A stretch of DNA of 64,000 nucleotides, taken from contig JACREQ010000111.1 in NCBI GenBank assembly GCA_016218155.1, forward strand, positions 31,035 through 95,034, read 5' to 3'. Origin of the DNA: Bacteroidia bacterium. Lineage in GTDB: Bacteria > Bacteroidota > Bacteroidia > Bacteroidales > GWA2-32-17. Under the pieces are notes generated by a model. That model was given only the letters and a program-made list of their open reading frames with translations, had not been told where the DNA came from and did not search any database. Below, in pieces: positions 12,578 to 36,568 of the stretch. The first letter of the stretch is position 1, and every line of letters begins with the position of its first letter. Both the position numbers and the translations under genes were made by a program.

Positions 12578-12585
12578 AAAAATCA

Positions 12586-12593
12586 TACCTTTG
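12586..12593 (+). promoter_or_regulatory. candidate housekeeping -7 box (TACCTTTG) for the ECF sigma gene
   Basis: TAnnTTTG match 15 nt upstream of the TTG start at 12609. Confidence 0.3.
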
Positions 12594-12608
12594 TAATTCA
12601 TATTTTTT

Positions 12609-13208: not shown

Positions 13209-13235
13209 TAGGGGAAAATGATTCAATAATTGTCT
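13208..13235 (+). promoter_or_regulatory. candidate ECF-type promoter (ATAGGGG-N15-ATTGTC) upstream of fecR
   Basis: Second copy of the two-block motif seen at 10163-10190. It lies in the 35-nt sigma-fecR spacer. Confidence 0.4.
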
Positions 13236-13243
13236 TATATAAA

Positions 13244-14251
13244 ATGAACAGTTTACCAGAAAATATTACACACGAACTCATTATTTCTTACTTAAAAAAA
13301 GAAACTACAAATGAGGAATCACTAGTAATAGAAGTGTGGCTTAATGCTTCTGTTGAAAACAAAGATTATTTTAATGATTTAAAAAATCTCTGGAGTGAAA
13401 CCGGAAAATTAAACCCTGCTCCAATTGAGGTTGACGTTGATACTGCATGGCAGAAATTATCCTCAAGAATTGAAAGCAAAGAAAACATTGCTATTTCTAG
13501 TAATAATCCATTTATTAAAACTTTATTAAAAGTAGCAGCAATAATTATCCCTGCTATAGCAATTATTTCATTTTATTTATTTTCAAATAAAGAATTAAAA
13601 CAAATTGATATTGTAACAACTAACAATAATATCCAAAAACAACTTTCTGATGGTAGCATAATTAATATAAATTCACATTCAAAATTAACTTACCCGGAGA
13701 AATTTGATAGCAAGCTGCGTGAAGTGAACCTTAGCGGTGAAGCCTTTTTTGAAATTTCACCAAACAAAGAAAAACCATTTATTATTCATTATAAAGACGC
13801 CAACGTAAAAGTTGTTGGAACATCGTTCAATGTAAATACCAACAATAATAAAGTAGAAGTGTTTGTTAAAACAGGAAAGGTTTTATTGTTTTGTGTTTCT
13901 TCAAACTCAAACGACACAAATTTAGTTACTTTAGTTGCCGGGGACAATGGAATCCTTGACCTAACAACAAAAAAAGCTTATAAAGAAGACTCTCCAAATG
14001 AAAATGATATTTTCTGGTATACAAAAACATTATTTTTTGACAAAGCTGAATTATCAGAGGTTATTGAAATATTACAAAAAAGCTATAATGTAAATATTGT
14101 ATTAAAAAATAAAGAGTTAAATAAACTTCGTTTATCTACAACTTTTAAAGATCAAAACATAGAATCTATACTTGATATTATCTCTGCTTCATTTAATTTA
14201 AAAGTTTCAAAAAATAATTCCACATACGAGATTGATGGAGAAAGTAATTAA
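13244..14251 (+). CDS. FecR-family anti-sigma factor
   Basis: 335 aa. It has an N-terminal cytoplasmic part, a single TM segment (AAIIIPAIAIISFYLF), the FecR block LSGEAFFEISPNKEKPFIIH...VKVVGTSFNV, and a C-terminal DUF4974-like part. Confidence 0.85.
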   Translation: MNSLPENITHELIISYLKKETTNEESLVIEVWLNASVENKDYFNDLKNLWSETGKLNPAPIEVDVDTAWQKLSSRIESKENIAISSNNPFIKTLLKVAAIIIPAIAIISFYLFSNKELKQIDIVTTNNNIQKQLSDGSIININSHSKLTYPEKFDSKLREVNLSGEAFFEISPNKEKPFIIHYKDANVKVVGTSFNVNTNNNKVEVFVKTGKVLLFCVSSNSNDTNLVTLVAGDNGILDLTTKKAYKEDSPNENDIFWYTKTLFFDKAELSEVIEILQKSYNVNIVLKNKELNKLRLSTTFKDQNIESILDIISASFNLKVSKNNSTYEIDGESN

Positions 14252-22301: not shown

Positions 22302-23465
22302 ATGAATAAAATAAATTCCATAATTGAGAATTATCCACCTGAAATGAAGTTTCTGCTTTTATGCTGTGGAAACAACAAATGGAATGCCGCCGACTTTAAG
22401 CAAAAACTTAACTGGGAAATATTCTTAAAATTAGTAAAACGACATAGAATTAATCCCGTTGTTTATGAGTTTACAATTAAAAATACTCATTTATTTCCTG
22501 AAGATATAAAAAAGCAAATTCAGGAATTACAAACTTTAAACTCAAAGCGGATGCTTAGCCTATCTGCCGAAATGATTAGGCTTAATAATCTATTTGACAG
22601 CAAAAATATTACAACTATCCCAATTAAAGGACCAGCATTAGCCTTTCAAATATATAACGATCCGGGAAAACGAAATTCTTTAGACTTGGATTTTTTAATT
22701 AAGCCAACAGATCTAGAGACCATTTCGGGATTAATGATTAATGAAGGATATAAACAAATAAAACCTGATTTTAAACTCAGTCCAAAACAATCAAAAGTTC
22801 ACAAAAAGATTATTCACCATTATTATTTTAAAAATCCTAATACCAATCTACTAGTAGAAATTCATTGGAAACTAATTACACCTTCTTCACTTTTTACTAA
22901 TTCAGAAAAAATGTTTTTTGAATCATTCATCACTTCAAATCCATTTATTAAAATAAAACCCGAACTTTTATTACATTATTTAATAGTACATGGCTCAATG
23001 CACAGATGGTATAAGCTATTTTGGTTAAATGACATACAGGAAATCATTCAGAGCAACAATAATTTTGACTACAATTATTTTAACAAGCTAACTAAATATT
23101 TCGGAGATGAAAGAATGGTAAGTCAAGCTTTATGTTTGATTCAAATAATTTTTAATTGTAACATTCCCAAAGATTTCCAAACATATAACATTAATAAAAG
23201 TATTATAAAATCAGCTTTAAGAGCAATAAATACTGAAGAAGAAAAGCTTCATAAAAGAACTTTTGAAAGAATAATTCGATTTAATTATATCATAAAACTA
23301 AAGGCTGGCTTCAAACATTTTATGTCTTGTTTAAATGCTCCCATGACAAACTATTTAGATTGGAAAACTCTACCTTTACCAGATTATTTATTTTTTCTGT
23401 ACTATCCACTTCGCCCATTTTTATGGTTTTGGTCGGTTTATATTAAAAAAGTTCACTCAGCATGA
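22302..23465 (+). CDS. uncharacterised nucleotidyltransferase-family protein (NTP_transf_5-like)
   Basis: 387 aa. The pattern IKGPALAFQIYNDPGKRNSLDLDFLI...VEIHWKL matches the uncharacterised nucleotidyltransferase family, as far as I can recognise it by eye. Confidence 0.6.
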   Translation: MNKINSIIENYPPEMKFLLLCCGNNKWNAADFKQKLNWEIFLKLVKRHRINPVVYEFTIKNTHLFPEDIKKQIQELQTLNSKRMLSLSAEMIRLNNLFDSKNITTIPIKGPALAFQIYNDPGKRNSLDLDFLIKPTDLETISGLMINEGYKQIKPDFKLSPKQSKVHKKIIHHYYFKNPNTNLLVEIHWKLITPSSLFTNSEKMFFESFITSNPFIKIKPELLLHYLIVHGSMHRWYKLFWLNDIQEIIQSNNNFDYNYFNKLTKYFGDERMVSQALCLIQIIFNCNIPKDFQTYNINKSIIKSALRAINTEEEKLHKRTFERIIRFNYIIKLKAGFKHFMSCLNAPMTNYLDWKTLPLPDYLFFLYYPLRPFLWFWSVYIKKVHSA

Positions 23466-24538
23466 AAATTGCAATAATCGGGACAAGAGGCATACCAAAC
23501 AATTACGGTGGATTTGAGCAATTTGCCGAACAAATTTCGGTAAGGCTTTCAGATTATGGAAACGATGTATATGTTTATAATCCTGCATTTCACACTTATA
23601 AAAACAATCTATACAAGAAAGTAAATATTATTCGCATACCTTGTCGTGAAAATATTTTTGGAAGTGCTGCACACTTTTTATACGATTATTTATGTTACAA
23701 ACATGCAATAAAACAACATGCAGATGTAATTCTGGTATGTGGGTATGGAACATCAGCTCCTGCAATTGCACTTATCAACAAACACCGTACAAAGGTAATT
23801 ACAAACATGGATGGGTTTGAGTGGGAAAGAGCTAAATATAATTCAATTACTAAGAAATTACTTAAATGGTTTGAGAATATTGTTGTAACAAAGTCTGATA
23901 AAATTATTGCAGATCATAAAATAATTCAGGAATATTACAAAAATAAATATAACATATTACCTGAGTACATTTCATATGGAGCAGATATAACTGCAAATTT
24001 TGATGAACTTTCTATTAATACATACGGACTAAAAAAAGATAACTATTTTTTAGTAGTTGCCCGTGACGAACCCGAGAATCAAATTGAATTTATTATAACT
24101 GCCTGGAAAAATTCTCATTCAGAGAAAACATTGTGCATTGTTACAAACATCCGGAAGCTGTCTAAAAAATATTCTGAACAAACTAACATTATTTTCATTA
24201 CAGGTCTATACGATTCGATAAAACTATCTAACCTTCGCCACTTTTCTTTTGCATGTATTCATGGACACACAGTTGGGGGAACTAACCCCTCATTATTAGA
24301 AGCTATGGCAGCAAAATCTTTTATTATTGCACATGATAATTTATTTCATAAAGAACTTTTGGAAAACAATGCATTATTTTTTAATACACCACAATCACTC
24401 ACCAAAATAATAATTGATTATACCAATATTATAGAAAAGAAGAACGTTTCAGTTCAAAACAATCTGACAAAAATTACTAATTTTCATCAATGGGATTTTA
24501 TTACAAATGAATATTTAAAACTTCTCTCCTGTTTATAA
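23462..24538 (+). CDS. glycosyltransferase with a DUF1972 N-domain (GT4, WchF/rhamnosyltransferase-like)
   Basis: 358 aa. The N-terminus MKIAIIGTRGIPNNYGGFEQFAEQ is the DUF1972 signature. The C-terminal GT-B block is HGHTVGGTNPSLLEAMA. The ATGA overlap with the upstream gene suggests translational coupling. Confidence 0.8.
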   Translation: MKIAIIGTRGIPNNYGGFEQFAEQISVRLSDYGNDVYVYNPAFHTYKNNLYKKVNIIRIPCRENIFGSAAHFLYDYLCYKHAIKQHADVILVCGYGTSAPAIALINKHRTKVITNMDGFEWERAKYNSITKKLLKWFENIVVTKSDKIIADHKIIQEYYKNKYNILPEYISYGADITANFDELSINTYGLKKDNYFLVVARDEPENQIEFIITAWKNSHSEKTLCIVTNIRKLSKKYSEQTNIIFITGLYDSIKLSNLRHFSFACIHGHTVGGTNPSLLEAMAAKSFIIAHDNLFHKELLENNALFFNTPQSLTKIIIDYTNIIEKKNVSVQNNLTKITNFHQWDFITNEYLKLLSCL

Positions 24539-24643: not shown

Positions 24644-24668
24644 GGAACTTTAATATATTTAGTTCGTA
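24644..24668 (+). promoter_or_regulatory. candidate ECF-type promoter GGAAC-N16-CGTA upstream of the first T9SS cargo gene
   Basis: GGAAC at 24644-24648 and CGTAAA from 24665. The motif ends 40 nt before the ATG. A near-identical arrangement lies at 30287-30312. Confidence 0.4.
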
Positions 24669-24708
24669 AAATTATCTTGTTAAAATAAAAACTTGAAAAA
24701 TTAAGGAT

Positions 24709-27700
24709 ATGAAACTCTTTACTCTTATTATCGCTTTTGTAATTTCCTCATCGCTTGTTAATGCACAGGGATGGATGTGGGTAAAACATTTTAATGGTAC
24801 CGGGCAAAACATGCCAACTAGCGTAATACAAGATGCTTCAGGTAATAGTTATGTTTTTGGAAATATTAATGGAGCAGTAACTCAGGATGGCATTTCGTTA
24901 ACAACAAACGGACAAGATGCTTTCTTTGCAAAATATAATGCTGATGGACAAATCCAATGGATTAAACAGCTGGGTGGAACATATACACAAACCGCAGGAA
25001 GTATTGTTTTTAGTAACGATAAAAATTATATTTACTTATCTTTGTTAAACAATGGAACTTTCTCATTTGAAGGAACAGACATTCCTACTATTGGTGGATT
25101 TGACATTATAATTGTTCAATTCGACATTGCAGGTAATTACCAATGGGCATTTAATGCTGCTTATGGTGCAAGCAACCAAACAAACGGTGCTTTAGCAATT
25201 GACAACTCAGAAAATATCATTTTAGCTGGTGGTTTTTTAAATGATGTTACTTTTTTAGGAGGATTTTCATTAACATCTCCATCTGCATCAAATCAAAAAT
25301 TTATAGCAAAATTCGATAGCTGGGGAAATCTTTATTGGGCAAATAAAATTGACGACGATAATACAAATACTACCATTAAATCAATAAGTACTGATGCTAA
25401 TGGCTATTATTTCAGTGGACAATTTGCTGGAAATTTTTATTTACCTACCGGCACTTTAACTTCGAATTCAACTTACAGAGAAGGTTTTATTTATAAAACA
25501 GACATGGATGGAAATGGTATATGGGCAAGAAAAATTTCTGCAATTAACAATGATTTATATATAAATAAACATATTACTGATAATTCCGGCAATCATTATT
25601 TAGCAGGATATTATAACGGAGTTAGATTAAAAATTGATTCTACATCTACTGACACATCAAAAATAACTTACTTAAATACCACTTCCGGAACTTCAGATTT
25701 AATTGTTTTAAAATATAATGCTGACGGAAATTTGCAATGGACTAAGGCAATTGGGTCAATAAAAAACGAAAAAGCAATAAATCTTGATATCTCTAACAAT
25801 AAGCTTATAATCACTGGTTCTTATGAGGGCAGTGTGAATTTTGGAATCTATAACTTAACCAATTCTGGTGGTAGTGATGCATTTATTGCTGAGAGTGATC
25901 TAGATGGAGCTTTTTCAAATGCCATCAAGGCTTCCGGCACTTCAAATGATATAGGGCAAACTTCAGTCTATAGTTCTACCGGTAGAAACTTTATCGCTAT
26001 CGGAGACTTTGTTTCTCCTATTTTGACAATTGGTACCAATCAGCTTACAAATTCTCTAACTGGAATAAGAGATGCATATGTGGCAAAATTTGGTTGTTTT
26101 GATAGCCTACACTTATCTTCAACATTAATTTGTGTTGATTCCGAAGGTTTGCCAATTGCAAATGACGGTACAGCAACTGCCACACCATCCAACGGCTCTG
26201 AACCATATACCTATCTTTGGTCAAATAATGAAACTACACCTACAATAACCGGACTAGCAGCAGGCACATATACTGTAACTGTAAACGGTGCAAATAGTTG
26301 CACTGCCATAAGTTCAGTTAATGTTTCACTTAGCACAGGCTTAGCCTTAACAATGAATCAAAACAATATTACTTGTAGTGGAGGAAATGATGGCTATGCC
26401 TCAATATCTGTTTCAGGGGGAAACGCTCCATATACATATATTTGGTCGAACAGCGAAACAACATCAGATATTTACAATTTGTTACCTGGCTCATACAGCG
26501 TAACAGTAACTGACCAATGTGGAATTACAGCAGTAGATAATGCCTTAATTAGTCAACCAGATCCATTAAATGTTACTATTTCTTTTACAAATTTATCTTG
26601 TTACGGGCATGGTGACGATGGAACAGCTACAGCTATTGCAACTTTTGGTAACGAACCATATACGTATTTATGGTCAAACGATTCAACAAATGCATCTGTT
26701 ACCGGGTTAGTTGCAGGAACTTATTTTGTAAGTGTTACAGATAAGTGCGGTGAAACCGTTGTTAAAGAAGTAACTATAACAACACCACCTGCTTTAATAA
26801 CAGATATTACAAACAGAGTAAACGTTACATGCTTTGGTTTATGTAATGGATCAGCAACTGCAAATGTAACATCTGGTACAAGCCCATTTTCATATACATG
26901 GTCAACTACACCAGCTCAAACTGATGTAAATGCAATTAATCTTTGCGTTGGTAATTATTCTGTTTCTGTTACCGATGCAGCTGGTTGTACTTCTGTTTCC
27001 AATTTCTCCATCTCTGAGCCTGCAATATTATCAGGCACAATGGGACAAACAAATGCAAGTTGTTACGGATCATGTAATGGCTCTGCCTGGATTACTCCAT
27101 CCGGCGGAACAGCACCTATTAGCTATTTATGGAACGATGCCCAAACAAATGACACAATATACTCTTTATGTGCAGGAAAATATAAAGTTACAATAACAGA
27201 CATTAATAATTGTGTATATAACGATTCTGTTGATGTTATACAACCATTTACTTTAGCAGCAAACATTAGTCAAACAAACGTTAGTTGTTATGGTAGCTGC
27301 AATGGTACCGCAACTTCTGCGCCAACAGGAGGTGATGCTAATTATAATTATTTATGGTCTACAATACCAGCTAATACTACTAATTCAATTTCTTCCCTTT
27401 GTGAAGGCAAATATTATTTAACCGTTTCAGATGCTTATGGATGTAGTGTTATTGATTCAGTAACAATTACACAACCAGAAGTATTAACTTCAATAACATC
27501 TTTCACACCAATTAGTTGTTTTGGTGGTAATGATGGAACAGCTTCTGCAACCCCAACAGGAGGAACTCCATCTTATTCTTATTTATGGTCGGATAATCAG
27601 ACAACAGCAACTGCCACAAATTTGATTGCAGGTGTATTTTCAGTTACTGTTACAGACTTAAACAACTGCACAACAACAAATTTCGTTACTATTACAGAGC

Positions 27701-30003
27701 CGACTGTATTGTCTGTATTAACATCGTTCACACAAATCAGTTGTTTTGGTGGTAATGATGGAACAGCTACTGCAACTCCAGCAGGTGGGACACCTCCATA
27801 TACCTATTTATGGTCAGATAATCAAACAACAGCAACTGCCACAAATTTAGTAGCCGGAGTATTTTCAGTTACTATTACTGATTTAAACAATTGCACAGCA
27901 ACTAACTCTGTTACTATTACAGAACCATCAGCATTAACAGTATTAACATCGTTCACACAAATAAGCTGTTTTGGTAGAAATGATGGAACAGCTACTGCAA
28001 CTCCAGCAGGTGGAACTCCATCTTATTCTTATCTATGGTCAGATAATCAAACCACCGCTACAGCAATAAATTTAGTAGCCGGTAATTATTCTGTTACTAT
28101 TACTGATGGATGTAGTAATACAACAACTAGTTACATAACAGTAACTGAGCCCTCAATTATGCTTGCAACACCTTCACAGATTGAACCATCAATTAATTCG
28201 TGTGATGGAACAGCTACTATTTCCACTACGGGTGGAACAAGCCCTTACACTTATTACTGGAACACTTCACCGGTACAAACAACTAGTACAGCTACTAATA
28301 TTTGTGGTGGAATTTGCTCTGTTACGATTACTGACAATAATAGCTGTACAACTACTCAAGAATATGCTTTTAAGAAAGCCATTAATCTTTCTGTTTTTGG
28401 AACACCTACTGCAAACACAGCTACACTAATTTGGGATGGAAGTAACGCAACAAATTATCAATTACAATTTTACATAGAAGGGACTACAGAATATAATATA
28501 CAAACAATTACAAGCAGCCCCTATACACTAAATTCTTTGCAACCAAACACAGCCTATTGCTGCAGAATTAGGACAAATATCGACGGAAATTATTCCAATT
28601 ATTCACCTATAGTTCATTTCACTACTGCTAGTGGATCTTCAATTCTTGCAACTAATTTAGCTATACAAGGAACACCTACTGCAACTACTGCAAATTTGAC
28701 ATGGTCAGGAAGTGGAGCTGATTCTTACCAAATACAATATTATATTGATGGAACAACAAATTATCTTTTTCAAAGTTCAACAAATTCACCGTACACTTTA
28801 ACCAATTTAATACCAAACACAATCTATAATTGCAGAATAAGAACATATTCAGGAGGTACATACTCTAACTATTCTTCTGCAATCTCTTTTACAACTGCAG
28901 ATGGTTCATATATTGCAACAAACTTAAATGTTTCGGGAACACCAACCGCGAATTCTGCAACCTTAATCTGGGATGGTAGCGGAGCCGATTACTATCAAAT
29001 ACAATACTATATAGATGGAACTACAAATTATTTATCTCAAAACTCCACTTCTTCACCATTAATAATTAATGCGTTACAACCAAACACTACATATAATTGC
29101 AGAATTAGAACTTATTTTGGAGGTACTTATACCTCTTATTCATCCATAGTTAGTTTTACTACAGCTGATGGAAGTTCAATACTTGCTACAAACCTTGCTG
29201 TTTCTGGAACACCTTCAGCAAATGCTGCAACATTAATCTGGAATGGTAGCGGAGCCGATTCATACCAAATACAATACTATATAAATGGGACAACAAATTA
29301 CCTGACTCAAACTGCAACAAATTCCCCAACTACTCTTAATTCTTTACAACCAAACACATCTTATAATTGCAGGATTAGAACATTTTCAGGTGGTGTCTAC
29401 TCCAATTACTCTTCTGTCGTTTCTTTTACTACTGCCAATGGTACTTCAATATTAGCAACAAACTTATCTGTAGTAGGATCACCTACTACAACAACATGTA
29501 CACTTAGCTGGGACGGCAGTGGAGCCACCTCATATCAAATTATATACTATAAAGCCGGAACAACAATTTATAAATTTAAAAGTAGTACATCTAGTCCAGC
29601 TACATTAACTGCACTTGAGGCCAATACCACTTATAATTGTAGGATAAGAACATATTCTGGCGGAACTTATTCAAATTACTCTCCAATTCTAAGCTTTACA
29701 ACTGCTAGTACTGCTAAATCTTATACAGAATTAACAGAATCAACTATGACATTATTTGATATTAATACTTACCCGAACCCTGCTACTGATGTTATAAATT
29801 TAGATTTCAATTCAGAAAAAGAGGGACTTATTAACTTGTCAATTTATAATATTAATGGAATGCTCTGTGAAACAACAATTATTGAAAACTCAGTTGGACA
29901 AAATCATTTTTTATTTAAAATTAATAATCTTTCATCCGGAATATATTTCATGATTTTAAGTAAAAATGATTTTTCCTATAAGACAAAATTAATTGTTCAA
30001 TAA
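24709..30003 (+). CDS. giant T9SS-secreted surface protein (SBBP beta-propeller repeats, ~10 SprB repeats, 5 FN3-like repeats, T9SS C-terminal sorting domain)
   Basis: 1764 aa with a signal peptide. N-terminal G-x-(I/L)-(Q/Y)-W-x-K propeller repeats are followed by C-x-G-x-x-(D/N)-G-x-A...Y-x-Y-(L/I)-W-S units, then YQIQYY...NCRIRT units. The C-terminus YPNPATDVINLDF...GIYFMILS...KLIVQ is a Por_Secre_tail-type CTD. Confidence 0.9.
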   Translation: MKLFTLIIAFVISSSLVNAQGWMWVKHFNGTGQNMPTSVIQDASGNSYVFGNINGAVTQDGISLTTNGQDAFFAKYNADGQIQWIKQLGGTYTQTAGSIVFSNDKNYIYLSLLNNGTFSFEGTDIPTIGGFDIIIVQFDIAGNYQWAFNAAYGASNQTNGALAIDNSENIILAGGFLNDVTFLGGFSLTSPSASNQKFIAKFDSWGNLYWANKIDDDNTNTTIKSISTDANGYYFSGQFAGNFYLPTGTLTSNSTYREGFIYKTDMDGNGIWARKISAINNDLYINKHITDNSGNHYLAGYYNGVRLKIDSTSTDTSKITYLNTTSGTSDLIVLKYNADGNLQWTKAIGSIKNEKAINLDISNNKLIITGSYEGSVNFGIYNLTNSGGSDAFIAESDLDGAFSNAIKASGTSNDIGQTSVYSSTGRNFIAIGDFVSPILTIGTNQLTNSLTGIRDAYVAKFGCFDSLHLSSTLICVDSEGLPIANDGTATATPSNGSEPYTYLWSNNETTPTITGLAAGTYTVTVNGANSCTAISSVNVSLSTGLALTMNQNNITCSGGNDGYASISVSGGNAPYTYIWSNSETTSDIYNLLPGSYSVTVTDQCGITAVDNALISQPDPLNVTISFTNLSCYGHGDDGTATAIATFGNEPYTYLWSNDSTNASVTGLVAGTYFVSVTDKCGETVVKEVTITTPPALITDITNRVNVTCFGLCNGSATANVTSGTSPFSYTWSTTPAQTDVNAINLCVGNYSVSVTDAAGCTSVSNFSISEPAILSGTMGQTNASCYGSCNGSAWITPSGGTAPISYLWNDAQTNDTIYSLCAGKYKVTITDINNCVYNDSVDVIQPFTLAANISQTNVSCYGSCNGTATSAPTGGDANYNYLWSTIPANTTNSISSLCEGKYYLTVSDAYGCSVIDSVTITQPEVLTSITSFTPISCFGGNDGTASATPTGGTPSYSYLWSDNQTTATATNLIAGVFSVTVTDLNNCTTTNFVTITEPTVLSVLTSFTQISCFGGNDGTATATPAGGTPPYTYLWSDNQTTATATNLVAGVFSVTITDLNNCTATNSVTITEPSALTVLTSFTQISCFGRNDGTATATPAGGTPSYSYLWSDNQTTATAINLVAGNYSVTITDGCSNTTTSYITVTEPSIMLATPSQIEPSINSCDGTATISTTGGTSPYTYYWNTSPVQTTSTATNICGGICSVTITDNNSCTTTQEYAFKKAINLSVFGTPTANTATLIWDGSNATNYQLQFYIEGTTEYNIQTITSSPYTLNSLQPNTAYCCRIRTNIDGNYSNYSPIVHFTTASGSSILATNLAIQGTPTATTANLTWSGSGADSYQIQYYIDGTTNYLFQSSTNSPYTLTNLIPNTIYNCRIRTYSGGTYSNYSSAISFTTADGSYIATNLNVSGTPTANSATLIWDGSGADYYQIQYYIDGTTNYLSQNSTSSPLIINALQPNTTYNCRIRTYFGGTYTSYSSIVSFTTADGSSILATNLAVSGTPSANAATLIWNGSGADSYQIQYYINGTTNYLTQTATNSPTTLNSLQPNTSYNCRIRTFSGGVYSNYSSVVSFTTANGTSILATNLSVVGSPTTTTCTLSWDGSGATSYQIIYYKAGTTIYKFKSSTSSPATLTALEANTTYNCRIRTYSGGTYSNYSPILSFTTASTAKSYTELTESTMTLFDINTYPNPATDVINLDFNSEKEGLINLSIYNINGMLCETTIIENSVGQNHFLFKINNLSSGIYFMILSKNDFSYKTKLIVQ
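26092..28377 (+). repeat. about 10 tandem ~76-aa SprB-type repeats (coding); units 7-9 (27478-28152) are near-identical
   Basis: Repeated pattern: (I/V)SC(Y/F)G..(D/N)G.A.......GG..PY.Y.WS.......(I/L)..L.AG.Y.V.(V/I)TD...C. Confidence 0.75.
28378..29706 (+). repeat. 5 tandem ~89-aa FN3-like repeats (coding)
   Basis: Unit consensus: ATNLAVQGTPTAN.ATL.W.GSGA..YQIQYYI.GTTNY..Q...SSP.TL..L.PNT.YNCRIRTYSGG.YS.YS....FTTA.G.SI. Confidence 0.8.
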
Positions 30004-30016
30004 ATTTAAAAATAAG

Positions 30017-30048
30017 AGGCTGTCTCGAAAGGACAGCCTTTTATTTTT
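30017..30048 (+). terminator. rho-independent terminator
   Basis: Stem aggctgtc(t)/(g)gacagcct with loop cgaaa, followed by TTTTATTTTT. Confidence 0.7.
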
Positions 30049-30286
30049 GGTCTGTGGCTTACATGCCTATAATTTTTGCATCGTCGATAACTATTAATCT
30101 GCTTATCATAGACTTCGATGAATTTTCTCTGCGGTTACTAGAAATACTACCACACCTTCAGTAATAAATAGAAATAAAATATTAACCCGAAGGTTAGCAA
30201 TTGAGCAAATGCTATATTTTATGATAGCTTTAAACTAATTAATGATTTCATATATCACATTCAATTTAATTAAAAATGTATAAAAC

Positions 30287-30312
30287 GGAACATTTTTTTG
30301 ATGTATTTCGTA
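30287..30312 (+). promoter_or_regulatory. candidate ECF-type promoter GGAAC-N17-CGTA upstream of the second T9SS cargo gene
   Basis: GGAAC at 30287-30291 and CGTAAA from 30309. The motif ends 41 nt before the ATG, mirroring 24644-24668. Confidence 0.4.
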
Positions 30313-30353
30313 AATATAATCCTTGAATAATAATAACTAAAAATATACATTAT

Positions 30354-33300
30354 ATGAAACAACTTTTTAGCTTTATCGCACTGATAATTGCCTTGAACTT
30401 TTCTTTAAATGGAGCTAATTTTAAAGATCAACCTACAACTATTAAGCAACCTGACGGTACAGTTATTAACTGCCTGAATTCGGGCGATGAGTTTTTTAAC
30501 TATATTCATGATGAGTATGGTTACACTATTATTCAAGGTCAGGATGGATGGTATTATTATGCCGTAAAAGACAATTATGAACAAATAATTCCATCAACTT
30601 ATAAAGTAGGTACAATTAACCCTGATAATGTAAATCTTCAGAAGTTTGTAAAACTAACTAAAAATCAATATCAGGAAAAGGTAAATCGATATTTTGCACC
30701 ACTTAAAGACAATTCAAAAGGTGGTACCTATAATATAGGAAAAGCACCATCGTCAGGAACTTTTAATAATCTTGTAGTATATATTCGATTTGCAGACGAT
30801 CCAGCGTTTTCAAATAATCGTCAAACCTATATTGATCTTTTCACAGGAACCGGAGGAGCAACTTATAGTGTTCAGGAATATTTTACTTCAGTATCATATA
30901 ATCAAATGCTAGTTAATGCAACTCATTTTCCTGATTGTGCACCTACTACAAACATTTCATTTCAGGATGCACATAACAGAGGGTATTTTCAACCATACAA
31001 TGCAACCACTAACACGATAGGATATCAGGATGACACAGAAGCAAGATTAAGAGAACATCAGTTGCTTGTTGATGCAGTAAATTTTACAAAAACAGAAATT
31101 GAAGCTACATTACCTGCAAATGAAATTGATCTGGATTCTGATGGGTATGTAGATAATATGTCATTTATTATATACGGAGATAATGATGCCTGGAGTGATT
31201 TATTATGGGCTCACCGTTGGGCATTATATACATATAATGTTAGCATTAATGGAAAAAGAGTCTGGGATTATACTTTTCAACCGGAAACACAATGTACAGC
31301 AAGAACTACATGTCATGAACTATTTCATTGCATGGGGTCACCCGATTTATATCATTATACCGATAATGGAGTTGATCCTTGCTGGTACTGGGATTTAATG
31401 GAATATGGTTCAGGCTCTATGACTGCATATATGAAGGAACAGATAGGAGGATGGATTACAATTCCTTCAATTTCTACTAGTGGATCTTATAGTTTAAGCC
31501 CATTAGCAGGTTCGACAAATAATGCTTATAAGATTGCACTTCCTAATTCAACTACAGAATTTCTTATCCTTGAATTCAGAAAAAAAACCGGACCTGTTGA
31601 AGCAAAATTAACAGCTTCGGCCGACGAAGGTTTGCTTATTTACAGAATTAACACTAATGTAACTATTGACGATGGCAACCGCAATGGACCACCAGATATG
31701 CTGTGGGTTTACAGACCCAATGGTGATACCAATAATAATGGAACACCAGGCGATGCAACTTTCAGTTCTACACAAGGACGAACCTCTTTTTCTGATGTTT
31801 CAAATCCTGCATTACTACTTTCTGATGATGCAACCTGGGGTGGAATATCCATTACGAATATAGGTGCAGTTGGATCTACCATTTCTTTTAATGTTACCTT
31901 TCCATCATCTGGGTATAATGTTACTTTTAATGTAACTGATGGAACAAATCCTGTTTCTGGAGCTAATGTAACATTTAACAGTACTTCACAGTTAACTAAT
32001 GCTTCAGGCATAACTACTTTTACAAGTGTTTCTGCTGGTAATAATTTAGCATATTCTGTAGCAAAAACAGGTTATACAACTTCAAATGGTACTGTTAATG
32101 TTATAAATACTGATGTTACCAAAAATGTTGTACTAGCAAGTCAAACTGCAACTAATCTTGCAGTACAAGGTACTCCAACTGCAAATACAGCAACTTTAAT
32201 CTGGTCTGGAAGTGGTGCAACAAACTACCAGATACAGTATTATATACAAGGTACCACAAATTACTTCTTTCAAACTGCTAACTCCAGTCCATACACTTTA
32301 CAAGCTCTAGAACCAAATTCAATATATTGTTGTAGAATAAGAACAAATTTAAGTGGTACTTATACTTCATATTCTTCAATTGTAACATTTACTACTTCAA
32401 ACGGATCTTCAATTTTAGCAACTAATTTAGCTGTACAGGGCACTCCTACTGCTAATGCGGCAACTTTAACTTGGACTGGAAGTGGAGCAACTTCTTATCA
32501 GATTCAATACTACATTAATGGAAGTACAAATTATTATTTACAAACAGCAATAAGTTCGCCATTTACACTAAATGCCTTAGAACCAAACACAATATACAAC
32601 TGTAGAATAAGAACATATTCTGGCGGAATATATTCATCTTATTCTCCAATCTTAAGTTTTACAACTGCAAATGGAACTTCAATTCTTGCAAGTAATCTTG
32701 CAGTTCAAGGAACTCCAACTGCAAATGCTGCAACATTAACCTGGAATGGAAGTGGAGCTACCTCATATCAAATACAGTATTATATAAACGGAACAACAAA
32801 TTATAATATTCAGACTGTGGCAAGTTCACCATTTACACTCAATGCTTTAGAACCTAATACCACTTATAATTGCAGAATAAGAACATATTCAGGTGGTACT
32901 TATACATCATATTCTCCTATTATTAGTTTTACAACTGCAAATGGTACCTCTATTTTAGCAACAAATCTATCTGTACAGGGAACACCAACAACAACTACCT
33001 GTTCACTAACATGGAATGGGAATGGCGCAAACTCTTATCAAATTATCTACTATAAAACTGGTACAACAAATTATAATATTCGCAATTTCACTAGTAGTCC
33101 GGCATTACTTACCTCGCTTTTGCCTAATACAAATTATGAATGTAGAATCAGAACGTATTCCGGTGGAACTTATACATCTTACTCGCCAACTTTAACATTT
33201 TCAACTGCAGCTTCTTTTAAAAATGACGTAACAAATGAACCATTATTAAATTACTCCCCTATTACCGAAGCTATTATTTATCCTAATCCTGCAACTAGTT

Positions 33301-33512
33301 TTTATAACTTAGACTTTAGCTCTGAAACAAATGGACAAATAAATTTCTCAATATTTAATATTGATGGTAAGTTATGTGAAACTAAGGTAATAGAACATCA
33401 AAAAGGAATTAATCATTTTGTTTTTGAAACCCCAAAACTTTCATCCGGATTATACTTTATTATTTTAAATAAAAATGACTTTAATTTTCAGCTAAAGTTA
33501 ATTGTTAAATAA
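30354..33512 (+). CDS. T9SS-secreted M6-like (immune inhibitor A-type) zinc metalloprotease with an Ig/CarboxypepD-like domain, 4 FN3-like repeats and a CTD
   Basis: 1052 aa with a signal peptide. The zinc motif TCHELFHCMGSPDLYH (HExxH) is present. After YNVTFNVTDGTNPVSGANVTF come 4 YQIQYY/CRIRT units, ending in the C-terminal YPNPATSFYNLDF...GLYFIILN...KLIVK. Confidence 0.85.
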   Translation: MKQLFSFIALIIALNFSLNGANFKDQPTTIKQPDGTVINCLNSGDEFFNYIHDEYGYTIIQGQDGWYYYAVKDNYEQIIPSTYKVGTINPDNVNLQKFVKLTKNQYQEKVNRYFAPLKDNSKGGTYNIGKAPSSGTFNNLVVYIRFADDPAFSNNRQTYIDLFTGTGGATYSVQEYFTSVSYNQMLVNATHFPDCAPTTNISFQDAHNRGYFQPYNATTNTIGYQDDTEARLREHQLLVDAVNFTKTEIEATLPANEIDLDSDGYVDNMSFIIYGDNDAWSDLLWAHRWALYTYNVSINGKRVWDYTFQPETQCTARTTCHELFHCMGSPDLYHYTDNGVDPCWYWDLMEYGSGSMTAYMKEQIGGWITIPSISTSGSYSLSPLAGSTNNAYKIALPNSTTEFLILEFRKKTGPVEAKLTASADEGLLIYRINTNVTIDDGNRNGPPDMLWVYRPNGDTNNNGTPGDATFSSTQGRTSFSDVSNPALLLSDDATWGGISITNIGAVGSTISFNVTFPSSGYNVTFNVTDGTNPVSGANVTFNSTSQLTNASGITTFTSVSAGNNLAYSVAKTGYTTSNGTVNVINTDVTKNVVLASQTATNLAVQGTPTANTATLIWSGSGATNYQIQYYIQGTTNYFFQTANSSPYTLQALEPNSIYCCRIRTNLSGTYTSYSSIVTFTTSNGSSILATNLAVQGTPTANAATLTWTGSGATSYQIQYYINGSTNYYLQTAISSPFTLNALEPNTIYNCRIRTYSGGIYSSYSPILSFTTANGTSILASNLAVQGTPTANAATLTWNGSGATSYQIQYYINGTTNYNIQTVASSPFTLNALEPNTTYNCRIRTYSGGTYTSYSPIISFTTANGTSILATNLSVQGTPTTTTCSLTWNGNGANSYQIIYYKTGTTNYNIRNFTSSPALLTSLLPNTNYECRIRTYSGGTYTSYSPTLTFSTAASFKNDVTNEPLLNYSPITEAIIYPNPATSFYNLDFSSETNGQINFSIFNIDGKLCETKVIEHQKGINHFVFETPKLSSGLYFIILNKNDFNFQLKLIVK
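32145..33209 (+). repeat. 4 tandem ~89-aa FN3-like repeats (coding)
   Basis: Same unit as at 28378-29706. By eye the DNA-level identity between genes is only moderate. Confidence 0.8.
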
Positions 33513-33540
33513 AAACTTATTTTCTTACAATAGAATATAT

Positions 33541-33577
33541 AAAGTAAAGGGTTGCATTTTGCAACCCTTTACTTTTG
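33541..33577 (+). terminator. terminator-like long hairpin
   Basis: Perfect 15-bp stem aaagtaaagggttgc/gcaaccctttacttt with loop atttt. The T-rich run lies within and after the 3' arm. Confidence 0.7.
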
Positions 33578-33719
33578 CATATAGTATTAAAATTCTAATT
33601 ATTATACGAGCTCCATATTAATTTAATATACTAATACTTATAATACTTCATATTACGACATTAACATTTATTAACAATAAGTAATTTAGCTTATTTATAT
33701 TTAGTCTAAATTAATATAG

Positions 33720-33727
33720 TATATTTG
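33720..33727 (+). promoter_or_regulatory. candidate housekeeping -7 box (TATATTTG) for the third T9SS cargo gene
   Basis: TAnnTTTG match 63 nt upstream of the ATG at 33791. This upstream region has no GGAAC...CGTA motif. Confidence 0.3.
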
Positions 33728-33790
33728 TAATAATTAAGTAAAGCATATTCTTAATTATATAAAATACAAAAACAATTTAACTCCTTAAAT

Positions 33791-36499
33791 ATGAAAAAGC
33801 AATTTTACTCAACTAACAAATTTATTGTCTCAATATTTATGACAATAATTATAATCGTTCCCCTATTTATAAAGGCACAAACAACAACTGTTTTCTCAGA
33901 TAATTTTAATACCTCAATGGGTACTGGCTATACAACCTCACAAGGCACTATTGGTTCAAGTACAAGTTGGTTAATGAAAACAGCTTCCAGTTCATTTGAA
34001 GCAAAAATAGATGGAGGAATTTTAAATTTAAAAACGTCTGGAACAGGTTCTGGTGCAATTTACGCATATACAAACACAAGTTCGTTTTCTGCACCATATA
34101 CTACACAACTTAATTCTAATATTGGTGTTGTAACCTGGACATTTAATATGAGACAAATTAGAACTGATCCAAGCGGAATGTCGTCTGGTTCATACGGAGC
34201 TGCAGTAATATTGGCCTCCTCCACTTCAAATGTTCTTTCATCAACAGGTTCTTCGGGAGGTATAGGTTATGCGGTTTATTTCGGAACAAGTGGTTCTACT
34301 GATCCAATTTATTTAGCCCGATACTCAAATGGCATTCGAAGCGGAACAATTACACCAATAATAACATCTAATACATCAGGTTTAACAGATTTTGGTGCAG
34401 ATTATTTAAGTGTAAAAGTTACTTATAATCCATCTTCAAATAGCTGGGAGCTTTTTCTAAGAAACGATGGTAGTACTGCATTTTCCGATCCTTCTTCAGG
34501 CACATTAATATCTCAGGGAACTGCAACTAATAACACATATACAGGAACTAGCCTGGGTTTTATGGGTGCTGTATGGAACGGAAGTTCAACAGCAAACCAG
34601 ACTGCATTTTTTGACAACTTTAAAGTAACTGTTAAAAAATTAGACCAAACTATTTCCTTTGAAGCATTATCAGATAAAACATATGGTGACCCTGCTTTTA
34701 ACTTAACGGCAACTGGAGGTGCATCCGGAAATCCTGTTACTTTCTCAAGTTCAAATTCTTCAGTTGCAACTTGTAGTGGAACAAATGGTTCAACAGTAAC
34801 AATTGTTGGGGTTGGTTCTACTTCTATTACTGCATCGCAAACCGGAGACGCAAATTATAATGCTGCTTTACCTGTTACACAAAATTTAACTGTAAATTCT
34901 GCTCTTTACACAGTAACTTTTAATGTTACAGATGGAATAAATCCTGTTCCTGGTGCTGTTGTTTCATTTAATAGTCTTACCCAGCTAACAAATAGTATGG
35001 GAACAACTGTTTTTACAAATATAATAACTGGTAACAATCAAGCATATTCCATTTCAAAAAACGGATATAACACAATTAACAGCTCCTTAAATGTAGCATA
35101 TCAGGATATTGTTATTAACAACACTTTTGGAAGCCAAACCGCAACAAATCTTGTTGTTATTGGAACACCAACTGCAAATACTGCAACACTTGGCTGGAGT
35201 GGAAATGGAGCAACAAATTATCAGATATTATATTATATTAACGGTTCTACAAATTATTTTCTACAGTCAACAACAGCAAGTCCGTTCACAATACAGGCAC
35301 TTGAACCTAACACAATATACAATTGCAGAATTAGAAGTCTAATAGGTGGAATATACAGTTCATATTCTCCTATTGTAAGTTTTGTAACATCTAGCGGCAC
35401 CTCAATTCTTGCGACAAATTTAGCAGTTCAAGGAACACCTACAGTCAATTCTGTTACGTTAATCTGGAATGGAAGCGGAGCAACCAATTATCAGATTCAA
35501 TATAATCCTACAGGAACTTCAGAATATCATATTTACACTGCTAGTTCAAGCCCAGTAACAATTACAGGTCTAACACAAAACACTACCTATGACTGCAGAA
35601 TAAGAACTTATTCGGGTGGTATGTACACATCTTATTCTCAAGCGATCTCTTTTACAACACCTAATTACCTTTCTGTAACTGCAACAAATCTAGCAGTTCA
35701 AAGTATTGGTGCAAATTCTGCAACACTAACATGGACAGGATCTGGTGCAACGTATTACCAAATTCAATACTTTATTAATGGCTCTACCGAGTATTTCTTT
35801 CAAAATTCATCAACAGGACCATTTACTTTACAAGCTCTGCAACCAAATACAACCTATAATTGCAGAATTAGAACATATAATGGAGGTTCATTTACTTCAT
35901 ACTCTTCTATAGTAAGTTTTACAACCTCTAACGGAAGTTCTGTTCTTGCTACTAATTTATCAGTTCAGGGAATACCAACTGCAACTACTGCAACGCTTTT
36001 GTGGAATGGAAGTGGAGCTACAAGCTATCAGATTCAGTATTATGTTACAGGTACAACAAACTACAAATTTCAAAGCTCTACTTCAAGTCCTGTTACATTA
36101 ACAGGTTTATTACCTAACACAAATTATGATTGCAGAATAAGAACTTATTCCGGTGGCATTTATACATCATATTCGCCTGTTACTACTTTTACTACTGCTT
36201 CGTTAGCTAAATATATAGCAGAGTTAGAATCAATTTCAAAAGATCCTATTTCAGAAGCTGTGATTTATCCTAATCCCGCTATTGACTTTTATAATTTAGA
36301 TTTCTATTCTGAAACTGAAGGAACAGTTAGTTTATCAATATATAGTATTGATGGCAAACTTTATGAAAGTAGGATAATTGAAACTTCTTTGGGTTTAAAT
36401 CACTTTGAGCTTAAAACTCCTGATATTTCAACGGGAATTTACTATATAATGTTAAATAAAGGTGATTTTACCAGTAAATTAAAACTAATTAAACAATAA
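33791..36499 (+). CDS. T9SS-secreted surface protein (lectin/LamG-like head, Ig-like domain, CarboxypepD-like domain, 4 FN3-like repeats, CTD)
   Basis: 902 aa with a signal peptide. The S/T/G-rich head ends ...TAFFDNFKVTV (concanavalin-like feel). An Ig-like block follows (ISFEALSDKTYGDPAFNLTATGG...ITASQTGDANYNAA). After YTVTFNVTDGINPVPGAVVSF come 4 repeats, ending in the CTD YPNPAIDFYNLDF...GIYYIMLN...KLIKQ. Confidence 0.8.
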   Translation: MKKQFYSTNKFIVSIFMTIIIIVPLFIKAQTTTVFSDNFNTSMGTGYTTSQGTIGSSTSWLMKTASSSFEAKIDGGILNLKTSGTGSGAIYAYTNTSSFSAPYTTQLNSNIGVVTWTFNMRQIRTDPSGMSSGSYGAAVILASSTSNVLSSTGSSGGIGYAVYFGTSGSTDPIYLARYSNGIRSGTITPIITSNTSGLTDFGADYLSVKVTYNPSSNSWELFLRNDGSTAFSDPSSGTLISQGTATNNTYTGTSLGFMGAVWNGSSTANQTAFFDNFKVTVKKLDQTISFEALSDKTYGDPAFNLTATGGASGNPVTFSSSNSSVATCSGTNGSTVTIVGVGSTSITASQTGDANYNAALPVTQNLTVNSALYTVTFNVTDGINPVPGAVVSFNSLTQLTNSMGTTVFTNIITGNNQAYSISKNGYNTINSSLNVAYQDIVINNTFGSQTATNLVVIGTPTANTATLGWSGNGATNYQILYYINGSTNYFLQSTTASPFTIQALEPNTIYNCRIRSLIGGIYSSYSPIVSFVTSSGTSILATNLAVQGTPTVNSVTLIWNGSGATNYQIQYNPTGTSEYHIYTASSSPVTITGLTQNTTYDCRIRTYSGGMYTSYSQAISFTTPNYLSVTATNLAVQSIGANSATLTWTGSGATYYQIQYFINGSTEYFFQNSSTGPFTLQALQPNTTYNCRIRTYNGGSFTSYSSIVSFTTSNGSSVLATNLSVQGIPTATTATLLWNGSGATSYQIQYYVTGTTNYKFQSSTSSPVTLTGLLPNTNYDCRIRTYSGGIYTSYSPVTTFTTASLAKYIAELESISKDPISEAVIYPNPAIDFYNLDFYSETEGTVSLSIYSIDGKLYESRIIETSLGLNHFELKTPDISTGIYYIMLNKGDFTSKLKLIKQ
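35138..36199 (+). repeat. 4 tandem ~89-aa FN3-like repeats (coding)
   Basis: Same unit family as in the two upstream genes. Confidence 0.8.
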
Positions 36500-36517: not shown

Positions 36518-36550
36518 AAAAAATGGGGTGCAATTTGCACCCCATTTTTT
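36518..36550. terminator. bidirectional terminator between convergent genes
   Basis: Stem tggggtgca/tgcacccca, flanked by A6 on the left and T6 on the right. Confidence 0.7.
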
Positions 36551-36568
36551 ATTTAAAAAGTAATATTA

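Follow-up and report, generated by a model that had tools for sequence, protein, structure and literature searches.

Three adjacent open reading frames (ORFs) on the forward strand of an uncultured Bacteroidota bacterium encode proteins of 1764, 1052 and 902 amino acids, at positions 24709-30003, 30354-33512 and 33791-36499 of the window (the whole stretch of 64,000 nucleotides that was analysed). The initial annotation, made from the letters alone, described them as three tandem T9SS cargo genes with unrelated heads on one shared C-terminal module. In this study, we have re-examined that description, and it was borne out nearly throughout: the heads are adhesin-like in gene 1, zinc protease-like in gene 2 and lectin-like in gene 3, with no mutual relatedness.

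Gene 1 (24709..30003, +) encodes a putative signal peptide, an SBBP-like beta-propeller, ten SprB repeats, five FN3 units and a type A C-terminal sorting domain (CTD). An SBBP propeller followed by about ten SprB repeats had been proposed for its head, and this is what the profiles recover. The propeller (approximately residues 22-465, +) is matched by NF047494 with an E-value of 7.8e-27, under the equivalog cut-off, and the repeat region (approximately residues 466-1223; 26104..28377, +) contains ten PF13573 stretches that score 293.9 bits against a cut-off of 28. One part of this region, at 27455-28129, is a sub-array of three copies of 225 nt, with 76-81% nucleotide identity and a longest exact run of 35 nt. 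SprB is a protein of several thousand residues with a type B CTD. With its ten SprB repeats (PF13573), gene 1 resembles SprB of Flavobacterium johnsoniae (PMC9143113, PMC12618676), but its CTD is of type A, its head is an SBBP-like propeller and its stalk is made of FN3 units, and it is for these reasons not a SprB orthologue. A role as the SprB gliding adhesin was rejected on the type of the CTD and also because no sprF-like gene, for a PorP/SprF-type partner, was found among the neighbouring genes checked.

Gene 2 (30354..33512, +) encodes a putative signal peptide, an M6-like metalloprotease head, a CPD-like beta-sandwich, four FN3 units and a type A CTD. Its metalloprotease domain (residues 141-431; 30774..31646, +) aligns with TIGR03296 over the full model length (positions 1-286 of 286, E = 6e-30), though the score of 105.1 bits is just under the curated cut-off of 110.8. 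A Pfam profile search gave no match to PF05547 at E ≤ 0.01; homologues at 70% identity to this head carry both PF05547 and an NCBI M6 name. The reading of this head as an HExxH protease of the M6/InhA-like type agrees with the zinc motif HELFHCMGSPD (residues 321-331; 31314-31346, +), and the pattern HExxHxxGxxD, which we take from MEROPS and TIGRFAM descriptions to define M6, is kept in 119 of 120 homologues of the head. The prototype of M6 is immune inhibitor A (InhA) of Bacillus. Among Bacteroidales, more than 100 T9SS proteins named M6 by NCBI (P0128, P0140, P0149 and others) are 49-73% identical to the gene 2 head over its full 495 aa and share HExxHxxGxxD with it. Where they differ is in their tails, which include InlB B-repeat, PKD, MAM, GEVED, BACON and a Cys-bracketed FN3-like type.

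Gene 3 (33791..36499, +) encodes a putative signal peptide, a ConA/legume-lectin-like head, an Ig-like domain, a CPD-like domain, four FN3 units and a type A CTD. The head (residues 28-286; 33872..34648, +) had no Pfam, NCBIfam or PDB match in profile and sequence searches, and PDB sequence searches with all three heads returned nothing useful. Its predicted structure (pLDDT 90.6) is a two-sheet jelly roll like that of legume lectins and the concanavalin A-like lectin/glucanase fold (PDB 1q8q, 2pel), with a Foldseek E-value of 1e-7 and TM scores of 0.50-0.55 among the best matches to legume lectins, as the proposal of a lectin-like head followed by an Ig-like domain would have it. The 50 Foldseek matches listed are all legume lectins or lectin-like seed proteins (TM 0.41-0.55). 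Arcelins and an alpha-amylase inhibitor are among the seed proteins in these listed matches. Sequence identity to legume lectins is only 10-17%, and lectin activity would be only a guess from the modelled fold. The Ig-like domain (residues 287-371; 34649..34903, +) belongs to the Big_2/PF26918 type, which many homologues also have, a call that rests on precomputed Pfam assignments of homologues covering only that quarter of the query; compared directly with Big_2, it gives an E-value of only 0.98. With 40 homologues at 52-67% identity and 665 cluster representatives in the wider family, the gene 3 head marks a conserved lectin-fold family of several hundred sequence clusters for which neither Pfam-A nor NCBIfam has a model.

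Behind these heads the three proteins end alike. Four to five FN3-like units per ORF, 13 in total, had been counted, and Pfam fn3 (PF00041) likewise delimits five, four and four stretches in genes 1, 2 and 3 (E-values of 2e-33, 3.9e-26 and 2.7e-31; 114.9, 91.5 and 108.0 bits against a cut-off of 25). Together with cutting at the CRIR motif, and for gene 2 with AF2/Foldseek, this places the stalks at 28378..29724 (+; gene 1, units 1-5, each of 90 aa, with a one-residue overlap between units 2 and 3, in register), 32148..33227 (+; gene 2, units 1-4) and 35141..36217 (+; gene 3, units 1-4). The 13 units so cut measure 89-90 aa and are 46-88% identical to one another. The repeat is predicted to fold into seven strands (AF2 pLDDT 94.3), and its best Foldseek matches are tandem FN3 structures. 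Used as a tblastn query against the whole 4.78-Mb genome, a single unit found only the 13 units of genes 1-3 and no further gene with the same stalk. Preceding the FN3 units in genes 2 and 3 only, as had been noted for a CarboxypepD/Ig-like domain with the signature YxVTFNVTDG, is a CPD-like (CarboxypepD_reg-like) seven-strand beta-sandwich, which in gene 2 (31899..32147, +) is the first cassette domain and is 56-58% identical to its counterpart in gene 3 (34904..35140, +). The latter is 40-43% identical to the CPD-like domains of P0022, the nearest relative of the gene 3 head. The domain goes with the stalk, not with the head, and is part of the shared cassette; the gene 2 copy also has weak matches to PF25641 and to the crAss-like phage head-fibre protein 7qof.

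A Por_Secre_tail-type CTD had been proposed for each ORF, and Por_Secre_tail and TIGR04183 both exceed their curated cut-offs in all three (PF18962, 46.5, 42.6 and 33.4 bits against 27; TIGR04183, 41.5, 41.0 and 40.4 bits against 23, the match reaching the last residue each time). These type A CTDs, at residues 1688-1764 of gene 1 (29770..30000, +), 975-1052 of gene 2 (33276..33509, +) and 825-902 of gene 3 (36263..36496, +), are 53-60% identical to one another and approximately 30-42% identical to other CTDs in the genome. The stalks are nearly free of charge outside the CRIR motif, as first described: D, E, K and R make up 4.2-6.2% of their residues, with two arginines per unit falling within CRIR. 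The corresponding figures are 14-18% for the heads of genes 1 and 2, 9% for that of gene 3 and 16-24% for the CTDs. Overall, the stalk is about 5% charged and about 11% tyrosine, and rich in T, S and N. The block C-R-I-R-(T/S) is invariant within the window, as claimed, but not beyond it, where one relative has C-K-I-R. Across 25 FN3 units from three genomes, 17 columns are invariant, and the FN3 subtype can be recognised by its low charge, by Y-x-C-R-I-R and by positional variants of the first, internal and last units.

The genome encodes a T9SS set, gldK/L/M/N, sprA, porU and porV, each above its curated cut-off, with gldKLMN contiguous at C107:216471-221523 and sprA and porU each split over contig ends. 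At least 150 of its ORFs bear a CTD. The N-termini of genes 1-3, judged by eye, begin with M-K, followed by a hydrophobic stretch and by A-Q or N-G around residues 19-30. The sequence evidence supports all three proteins as T9SS type A cargo. By analogy with what is established for this cargo family, each would be exported by Sec, its CTD would be recognised, and it would pass through the SprA translocon, to be released or, once PorU has taken off the CTD, attached to the outer membrane. In other Bacteroidota, release and not anchoring is the fate of many cargo proteins of type A. The general plan of such cargo is a Sec signal peptide, an N-terminal functional domain and Ig-like or FN3-like intermediates (reviews PMC5445135, PMC10202324), ahead of a type A CTD that forms a C-terminal Ig-like beta-sandwich sorting domain (structure PMC4804311). 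Genes 1-3, with signal peptides that are putative, follow this plan and do not differ from it in kind; what is lineage-specific is the FN3 subtype and its confinement to one locus.

Upstream of gene 1, an ECF-sigma-like promoter motif, GGAAC-N16-CGTAAA (24644..24670, +), ends 38 nt 5' of the ATG, and a GGAAC-N17-CGTAAA version (30287..30314, +) ends 39 nt 5' of the gene 2 ATG. These are the two occurrences in the window, against 0.02 expected, and there are only five in the whole genome. In a sister species, the motif is kept upstream of the gene 1 orthologue and is degenerate (GAAAC-N17-CGTAAT) at the gene 2 orthologue; upstream of gene 3, the motif of genes 1 and 2 is absent. An ECF-sigma-dependent promoter is probably common to genes 1 and 2, to judge from the motif match and its one orthologous conservation. 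An ECF sigma/FecR pair encoded at 12609-14251 is unlikely to be the regulator of these promoters, because the sister species has kept the promoter, while its best match to this sigma factor is only 37% identical and is not syntenic. Each gene was also said to have its own terminator, and a hairpin with a T-rich tail does lie 3' of every stop codon. After gene 1 (AGGCTGTC...GACAGCCT, then TTTTATTTTT) it is at 30017..30048; after gene 2 it has a 16-bp stem with a GGGTTGCA/TGCAACCC core and a T-rich 3' arm (33541..33576); and between gene 3 and a convergent acetyltransferase gene it is bidirectional (A-tract, ATGGGGTGCA/TGCACCCCAT, T-tract; 36519..36552). From these terminators and the promoter motif, genes 1-3 appear to be separate transcription units, and gene 3 may be a separately regulated, lineage-specific addition or survivor.

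At the syntenic locus of the sister species (G004), genes 1 and 2 have orthologues and gene 3 does not. The two orthologues have four and three FN3 units, that of gene 2 is 79% identical over the head, and that of gene 1 has roughly half the SprB repeats (by eye, rather than counted with an HMM). Downstream, a polysaccharide cluster flanks our locus at 36.5-64 kb; a functional link between the two finds no support in the sister species, which has pyrF, prfA, era and der in that place. In another MAG, a convergent polysaccharide cluster follows a homologue, and in GWF2_33_38 a glycosyltransferase precedes the cargo gene. The cassette itself was absent from six of the seven other same-genus genomes searched.

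The copies of the cassette are 46-88% identical in amino acids and 60-77% in nucleotides, the longest exact run between genes is 20-29 nt, and the fraction of identical residues that use the same codon (0.38-0.55) is alike for paralogous and orthologous pairs. The stalk is under purifying selection although its synonymous sites are saturated. The cassette is thus old, its copies having diverged under purifying selection. That the stalks have recently undergone gene conversion or concerted evolution was rejected on the exact runs of at most 29 nt and on paralogue codon identity that is not above that of orthologues. In a tree of the units from both species, the first units of genes 1 and 2 form one clade (89/97), the last units form another (97/92), which the last unit of gene 3 joins at 82/64, and the internal units cluster gene by gene. 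This grouping of first and last units by position suggests that the cassette was copied as a block. It would have had a single origin and then spread by block duplication beside itself, with the N-terminal functional part replaced at each duplication. RgpA, Kgp and HagA of Porphyromonas gingivalis likewise have a common C-terminal module behind differing N-terminal parts in one genome. Their shared modules are near-identical through recombination and are themselves adhesins, whereas the copies here are 46-88% identical, show no recent conversion, consist of FN3 spacers and belong to adjacent genes.

A comparison of relatives for head swapping had been proposed as a check, and relatives do bear other heads on the same cassette. 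In the MAG GWF2_33_38, the cassette (54-64% identity) lies under a Reprolysin_5 and BNR_assoc_N head, and more distant versions within the order carry C10 + SprB, M6 + GEVED, S8 and LRR heads. A second tandem array of three genes, which have a shared tail of their own, is present in another family. Conversely, the head families are each widespread, for the most part singly and in front of other tails. The M6 heads of gene 2 (P0002) and P0128 are 70% identical and their stalks 28%; the lectin-like heads of gene 3 (P0003) and P0022 are 67% identical and their stalks 25%. Compared the other way, P0002 and P0003 have stalks with 63% identity, and P0022 and P0128 have stalks with 55%, the latter being a comparison between two different MAGs. 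This checkerboard shows an apparent exchange of heads and stalks in both directions. Based on these results, we consider it likely that the locus represents modular T9SS cargo, formed as copies were made and their heads replaced, rather than a dedicated system of three parts. One secretion-competent stalk and tag would have come to serve a binding protein with SBBP and SprB repeats, a zinc protease of the M6 type and a protein with a lectin fold.

A part of the initial annotation that fares poorly is its conclusion that the locus is a single modular surface-display system. In such a system an adhesin, a protease and a lectin would be presented at a common height and work together on a single substrate or prey surface. 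The genes are indeed neighbours with a common orientation, no other locus of the genome carries the cassette, genes 1 and 2 have a near genome-unique promoter motif at a like distance from the ATG and have stayed paired in the sister species, and the array in another family is a second instance of the arrangement. Against this, gene 3 is missing from the syntenic sister locus and lacks the promoter motif, a terminator follows every gene, the cassette is wholly absent from most of the same-genus genomes searched, and each head is widespread on other stalks. The heads would not stand at a common height, because the stalks are unequal (5/4/4 units here, 4/3 in the sister species) and SprB repeats lengthen the gene 1 protein by about 760 aa. 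Moreover, local duplication yields tandem paralogues without any shared function. Joint action is for these reasons improbable, and duplication with head replacement remains the better account of the locus. A related possibility concerns the genome rather than the locus, namely that stalk type belongs to the genome and not to the protein: unrelated heads would be put or kept on one lineage-specific cassette of CPD-like domain, FN3 units and CTD, and the same heads elsewhere would sit on another cassette. We regard this as doubtful, if slightly less so than joint action. If true, it would point to selection for a matched display vector, suited, for instance, to capsule or O-antigen depth or to the organism's own T9SS shuttle and attachment proteins, and stalk and CTD cassettes should therefore co-vary with envelope glycan loci.

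As for the stalk, its fold and position make a passive extended spacer the most likely role of the FN3 chain. An FN3 domain is about 3.5 nm long, and the stalk would on this figure measure about 14-18 nm and keep the head clear of the membrane anchor and CTD. Its odd composition could reflect a binding or packing role. One could go further and suppose that the stalk is a functional surface, which either binds polysaccharide (a substrate, or capsule or O-antigen of the same cell) or lies packed alongside neighbouring stalks in a surface layer, and is conserved for that reason. The charge content under that of heads and CTDs would fit, as would the purifying selection despite saturated synonymous sites and the polysaccharide-synthesis genes adjoining both this locus and a homologue in another MAG, and the invariant columns seem more than a spacer needs. 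Most of the invariant residues, however, are those expected of the usual FN3 core (W of strand B, Y-x-C/V-x-I/V-x of strand F, Gly/Pro turns), the polysaccharide neighbourhood is not kept in the sister species, more distant cassette versions are normally charged, and the Pfam profile search gave no carbohydrate-binding family match. We think a functional surface of this kind improbable, and prefer the passive spacer. The suggestion that the stalk is glycosylated also fails to find support in its sequence. The Bacteroidota O-glycosylation motif D-(S/T)-(A/I/L/V/M/T), as given in PMC11611037 (citing Fletcher et al.), does not occur in the three stalks, even in the widened T. forsythia form; it occurs six times in the head and SprB region of gene 1 and not at all in genes 2 and 3. 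N-x-S/T sequons in the stalks of genes 2 and 3 are no commoner than composition predicts, those of gene 1 are about 1.7 sd above it, and no sequon position is conserved among the stalks.

In conclusion, these genes leave the understanding of the T9SS itself unchanged. The cassette, a short, charge-poor and well-folding FN3 chain with a CTD, is a candidate natural display scaffold. The re-use of such cassettes is a common route to new secreted proteins in Bacteroidota and a known pattern, of which genes 1-3 would provide a clean, dated example: a stalk-plus-tag unit duplicated locally, and its working end replaced, as the T9SS secretome grows.

Based on our results, the three neighbouring plus-strand ORFs gene 1 (24709-30003, 1764 aa), gene 2 (30354-33512, 1052 aa) and gene 3 (33791-36499, 902 aa) are probably ordinary modular type IX secretion system (T9SS) cargo, in which a secretion-competent stalk-plus-tag would have been duplicated in place and then fitted with new heads, the chain of FN3 units serving as an extended spacer. 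Their only rival in 24709-36499, on both strands, is one 100-aa antisense ORF, and all three N-termini resemble signal peptides by eye. The initial annotation had claimed a common C-terminal module, and profile searches (Pfam, NCBIfam) agree: genes 1, 2 and 3 carry five, four and four fn3 stretches and a sorting domain (CTD), with TIGR04183 scoring 40-42 bits in each protein against a cut-off of 23. In gene 1, the CTD is of type A, which rules this gene out as an SprB orthologue; its head combines ten SprB repeats (293.9 bits) with an SBBP-type propeller match (NF047494, E 7.8e-27) that is far below the equivalog cut-off and therefore indicates the fold class only. Three consecutive 225-nt SprB units (27455-28129) share 76-81% nucleotide identity, their longest exact run being 35 nt, and mark an internal expansion younger than the remaining array, though not a very recent one. 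By eye, the sister species has about half as many SprB repeats.

The genome holds the machinery for such cargo, one of the checks the annotation had named. GldK, GldL, GldM and GldN are contiguous (C107:216471-221523), PorV is present and SprA and PorU are each broken over two contig ends, every match being above its curated cut-off. At least 150 ORFs bear TIGR04183 (a lower bound, 150 of 423 candidates having been scored), which makes genes 1-3 a minor share of a very large secretome. As in the T9SS cargo family at large, their products would be exported, relieved of the CTD and anchored.

Cut at the CRIR motif, the stalks consist of 13 linker-free units of 89-90 aa that are 46-88% identical, and when one unit was searched by tblastn in the complete 4.78-Mb assembly, it matched exactly these 13 and no further copy. 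The three CTDs are 53-60% identical mutually and only ~30-42% to other CTDs in the genome, and the CPD-like domain (the YxVTFNVTDG beta-sandwich) is common to genes 2 and 3 only, at 56% identity. A confident AlphaFold model of this domain with the first FN3 unit (pLDDT 94.3; input alignment of 25 rows from three genomes) predicts two seven-strand sandwiches, and the PDB entries closest to it are tandem FN3 and Ig-FN3 proteins, in line with the proposed repeat fold. With the CTD scores and the T9SS genes, this means that each of the refuting outcomes listed in the initial annotation failed to appear. The CPD-like domain at 31899-32147 also weakly matches crAss-like phage head-fibre proteins (PDB 7qof, E 0.075; Pfam PF25641, E 0.0015), which probably reflects merely a common small beta-sandwich. 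The last units of genes 1 (29455-29724) and 2 (32958-33227), and those of their orthologues, have an extra strand-B Cys (T-T-C-x-L-x-W) on top of the strand-F Cys of CRIR, where classical Ig domains have their B-F disulfide, and such a bond may staple the unit adjoining the CTD. The last unit of gene 3 is without the strand-B Cys, and CC-RIR is the form seen in the first units of genes 1 and 2.

The head of gene 2 matches the full TIGR03296 M6 domain (E 6e-30; 105.1 bits, where the cut-off is 110.8) and is 79% identical to its sister-species orthologue. More than 100 proteins, many of them with PF05547 and the NCBI name "M6 family metalloprotease domain-containing protein", align with it across all 495 aa at 49-73% identity, and HExxHxxGxxD is kept in 119 of 120 homologues; judged from sequence, this head is M6-like, narrowly under the curated threshold. 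For the head of gene 3 (33872-34648, plus strand, residues 28-286), sequence searches of Pfam-A, NCBIfam and the PDB gave no match. Its model (pLDDT 90.6, pTM 0.91) has a predicted ConA/legume-lectin fold and matches legume lectins (E 1e-7, TM 0.50-0.55), so that the earlier "lectin/LamG-like" label is right as to fold. Among the first 120 matches, 40 homologues at 52-67% identity lie in T9SS proteins labelled Bacteroidota, Ignavibacteria and Cloacimonas; a full scan gave 665 representatives of 50%-identity clusters (188 at E <= 1e-30), proteins of 280-3100 aa in which the domain nearly always stands directly behind the signal peptide. This domain, well conserved across phyla (52-68% identity), is a candidate for a domain-family model of its own.

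The cassette is old. Nucleotide identity between FN3 units is 60-77%, stalks of different genes match exactly over 20-29 nt at the longest, and where residues are identical the fraction with the same codon (0.38-0.55) is alike for paralogous and orthologous pairs, which together place synonymous sites near saturation; the short exact runs, and codon fractions no higher in paralogues, also rule out recent gene conversion of the stalks. A maximum-likelihood tree of 25 units, taken from the source genome, MAG GWF2_33_38 and the sister species, unites the first units of genes 1 and 2 from both species (89/97), and likewise their last units (97/92), which the last unit of gene 3 joins (82/64). This grouping by position indicates block copying of the cassette that predates the separation of the two species. 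Internal units cluster by gene, and the unit counts (five and four in genes 1 and 2 here, four and three in the sister species) point to their later gain or loss.

Heads and cassettes have also been exchanged, in both directions. A sample of 400 genomes from the order contains seven more that match the cassette at E <= 1e-30. GWF2_33_38 has a CRIR-type cassette (54-64% identity, five units, CPD-like domain) behind a Reprolysin_5 + BNR_assoc_N head, and more distant versions carry Peptidase_C10 + SprB or Peptidase_M6 + GEVED heads. In a complete genome from another family of the order, three T9SS cargo genes also form a tandem array (L039/L040, G122:C1:3801287-3819434); their products, of 982 aa (unknown head), 3203 aa (LRR protein) and 1685 aa (S8 subtilase), have a GEVED/FN3/CTD tail in common (53-71% identity). 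Among the proteins nearest to the gene 2 head are P0127 (73%), with a related CRIR-like tail, and P0126, P0128, P0129 and P0130 (62-72%), with a different, Cys-bracketed FN3-like tail. In P0022, closest to the gene 3 head (67%), the head-Ig-CPD order is unchanged but the tail is again Cys-bracketed; over 496 aa this tail shares 55% identity with the one in P0128, an M6 protein from a different MAG. Both tails are only ~25-28% identical to the window tails, themselves 63% identical mutually. The CPD-like domain follows the tail: that of gene 3 is 58% identical to that of gene 2 and 40-43% to those of P0022, whose third copy is 76% identical to that of P0128. This domain therefore belongs to the cassette, as had been proposed, and the overall pattern indicates that heads and cassettes recombined at least twice.

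Of seven other genomes of the genus, only the sister species (G004, MAG QH2S170213_bin_357) has the cassette; the remaining ones searched are 74-100% complete. Its locus is syntenic with the window from ~15,900 through gene 2, including the upstream NTP_transf_5 and GT4 genes, and synteny stops exactly behind gene 2: gene 3 is absent there and pyrF, prfA, era and der come next, whereas in the window a polysaccharide cluster of at least 27 kb follows gene 3 to the window end. The cargo genes thus lie between a conserved NTP_transf_5 and GT4/DUF1972 pair (22302-24538) and this large minus-strand O-antigen/capsule cluster (36569-64000), with Wzx, Wzy, glycosyltransferases, acetyltransferases, an aminotransferase and an acyl-carrier module. 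In another MAG (L045), a homologous M6 cargo gene also precedes a convergent polysaccharide cluster.

Each gene has its own terminator, as first noted: GC-cored hairpins with T-rich tails stand behind all three stop codons (30017-30048, 33541-33576 and 36519-36552). An ECF-type motif, GGAAC-N16/17-CGTAAA, ends 38 nt before the ATG of gene 1 (24644-24670) and 39 nt before that of gene 2 (30287-30314), two matches in the window against 0.02 expected; with a CGTAA[AT] ending, only five occur genome-wide, these two included. In the sister species, it is kept before the gene 1 orthologue with a changed spacer and is degenerate before that of gene 2 (GAAAC-N17-CGTAAT). Upstream of gene 3 the motif is absent, and a housekeeping-type Bacteroidota box, TATATTTG, lies ~65 nt upstream instead, by eye. 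An ECF sigma/FecR pair 9 kb upstream (12609-14251) is probably not the regulator of these promoters, since its best sister-genome match is only 37% identical and not syntenic. The surrounding genes (10214-15854) encode a TonB-dependent-receptor-like protein without STN domain, the ECF sigma, the FecR anti-sigma and, as a protein of its own (540 aa), an STN domain.

The initial annotation read the locus as a surface-display system presenting an adhesin, a protease and a lectin on a common stalk. A dedicated three-part system of this kind is a weak reading: the sister species does without gene 3, regulation as well as termination is separate, stalk lengths are unequal, and each head family is mostly found elsewhere, on other tails. 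The stalk, unusually charge-poor (D+E+K+R 4.2-6.2%, against 14-18% in the heads of genes 1 and 2, 9% in that of gene 3 and 16-24% in the CTDs) and Tyr-rich, may, though with low probability, have a functional, binding role instead of being a spacer. Its suggested glycosylation finds no sequence support: the O-glycosylation motif D(S/T)(A/I/L/V/M/T) (PMC11611037) occurs zero times in a scan of the three stalks, N-x-S/T occurs 17, 11 and 9 times in genes 1, 2 and 3 against 12.3, 10.6 and 8.4 expected from composition, and no such position is present in more than 6 of the 13 units.

Duplicated ordinary cargo thus remains our preferred reading. The gingipains and HagA are likewise cargo genes with C-terminal modules in common, and their likeness to genes 1-3 is this sharing of modules by different cargo genes. 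The architecture itself is textbook T9SS cargo (PMC5445135, PMC10202324, PMC4804311). Both aspects are known already; the more interesting part is the checkerboard of heads and stalks, together with a lectin-fold head family that is without a model.
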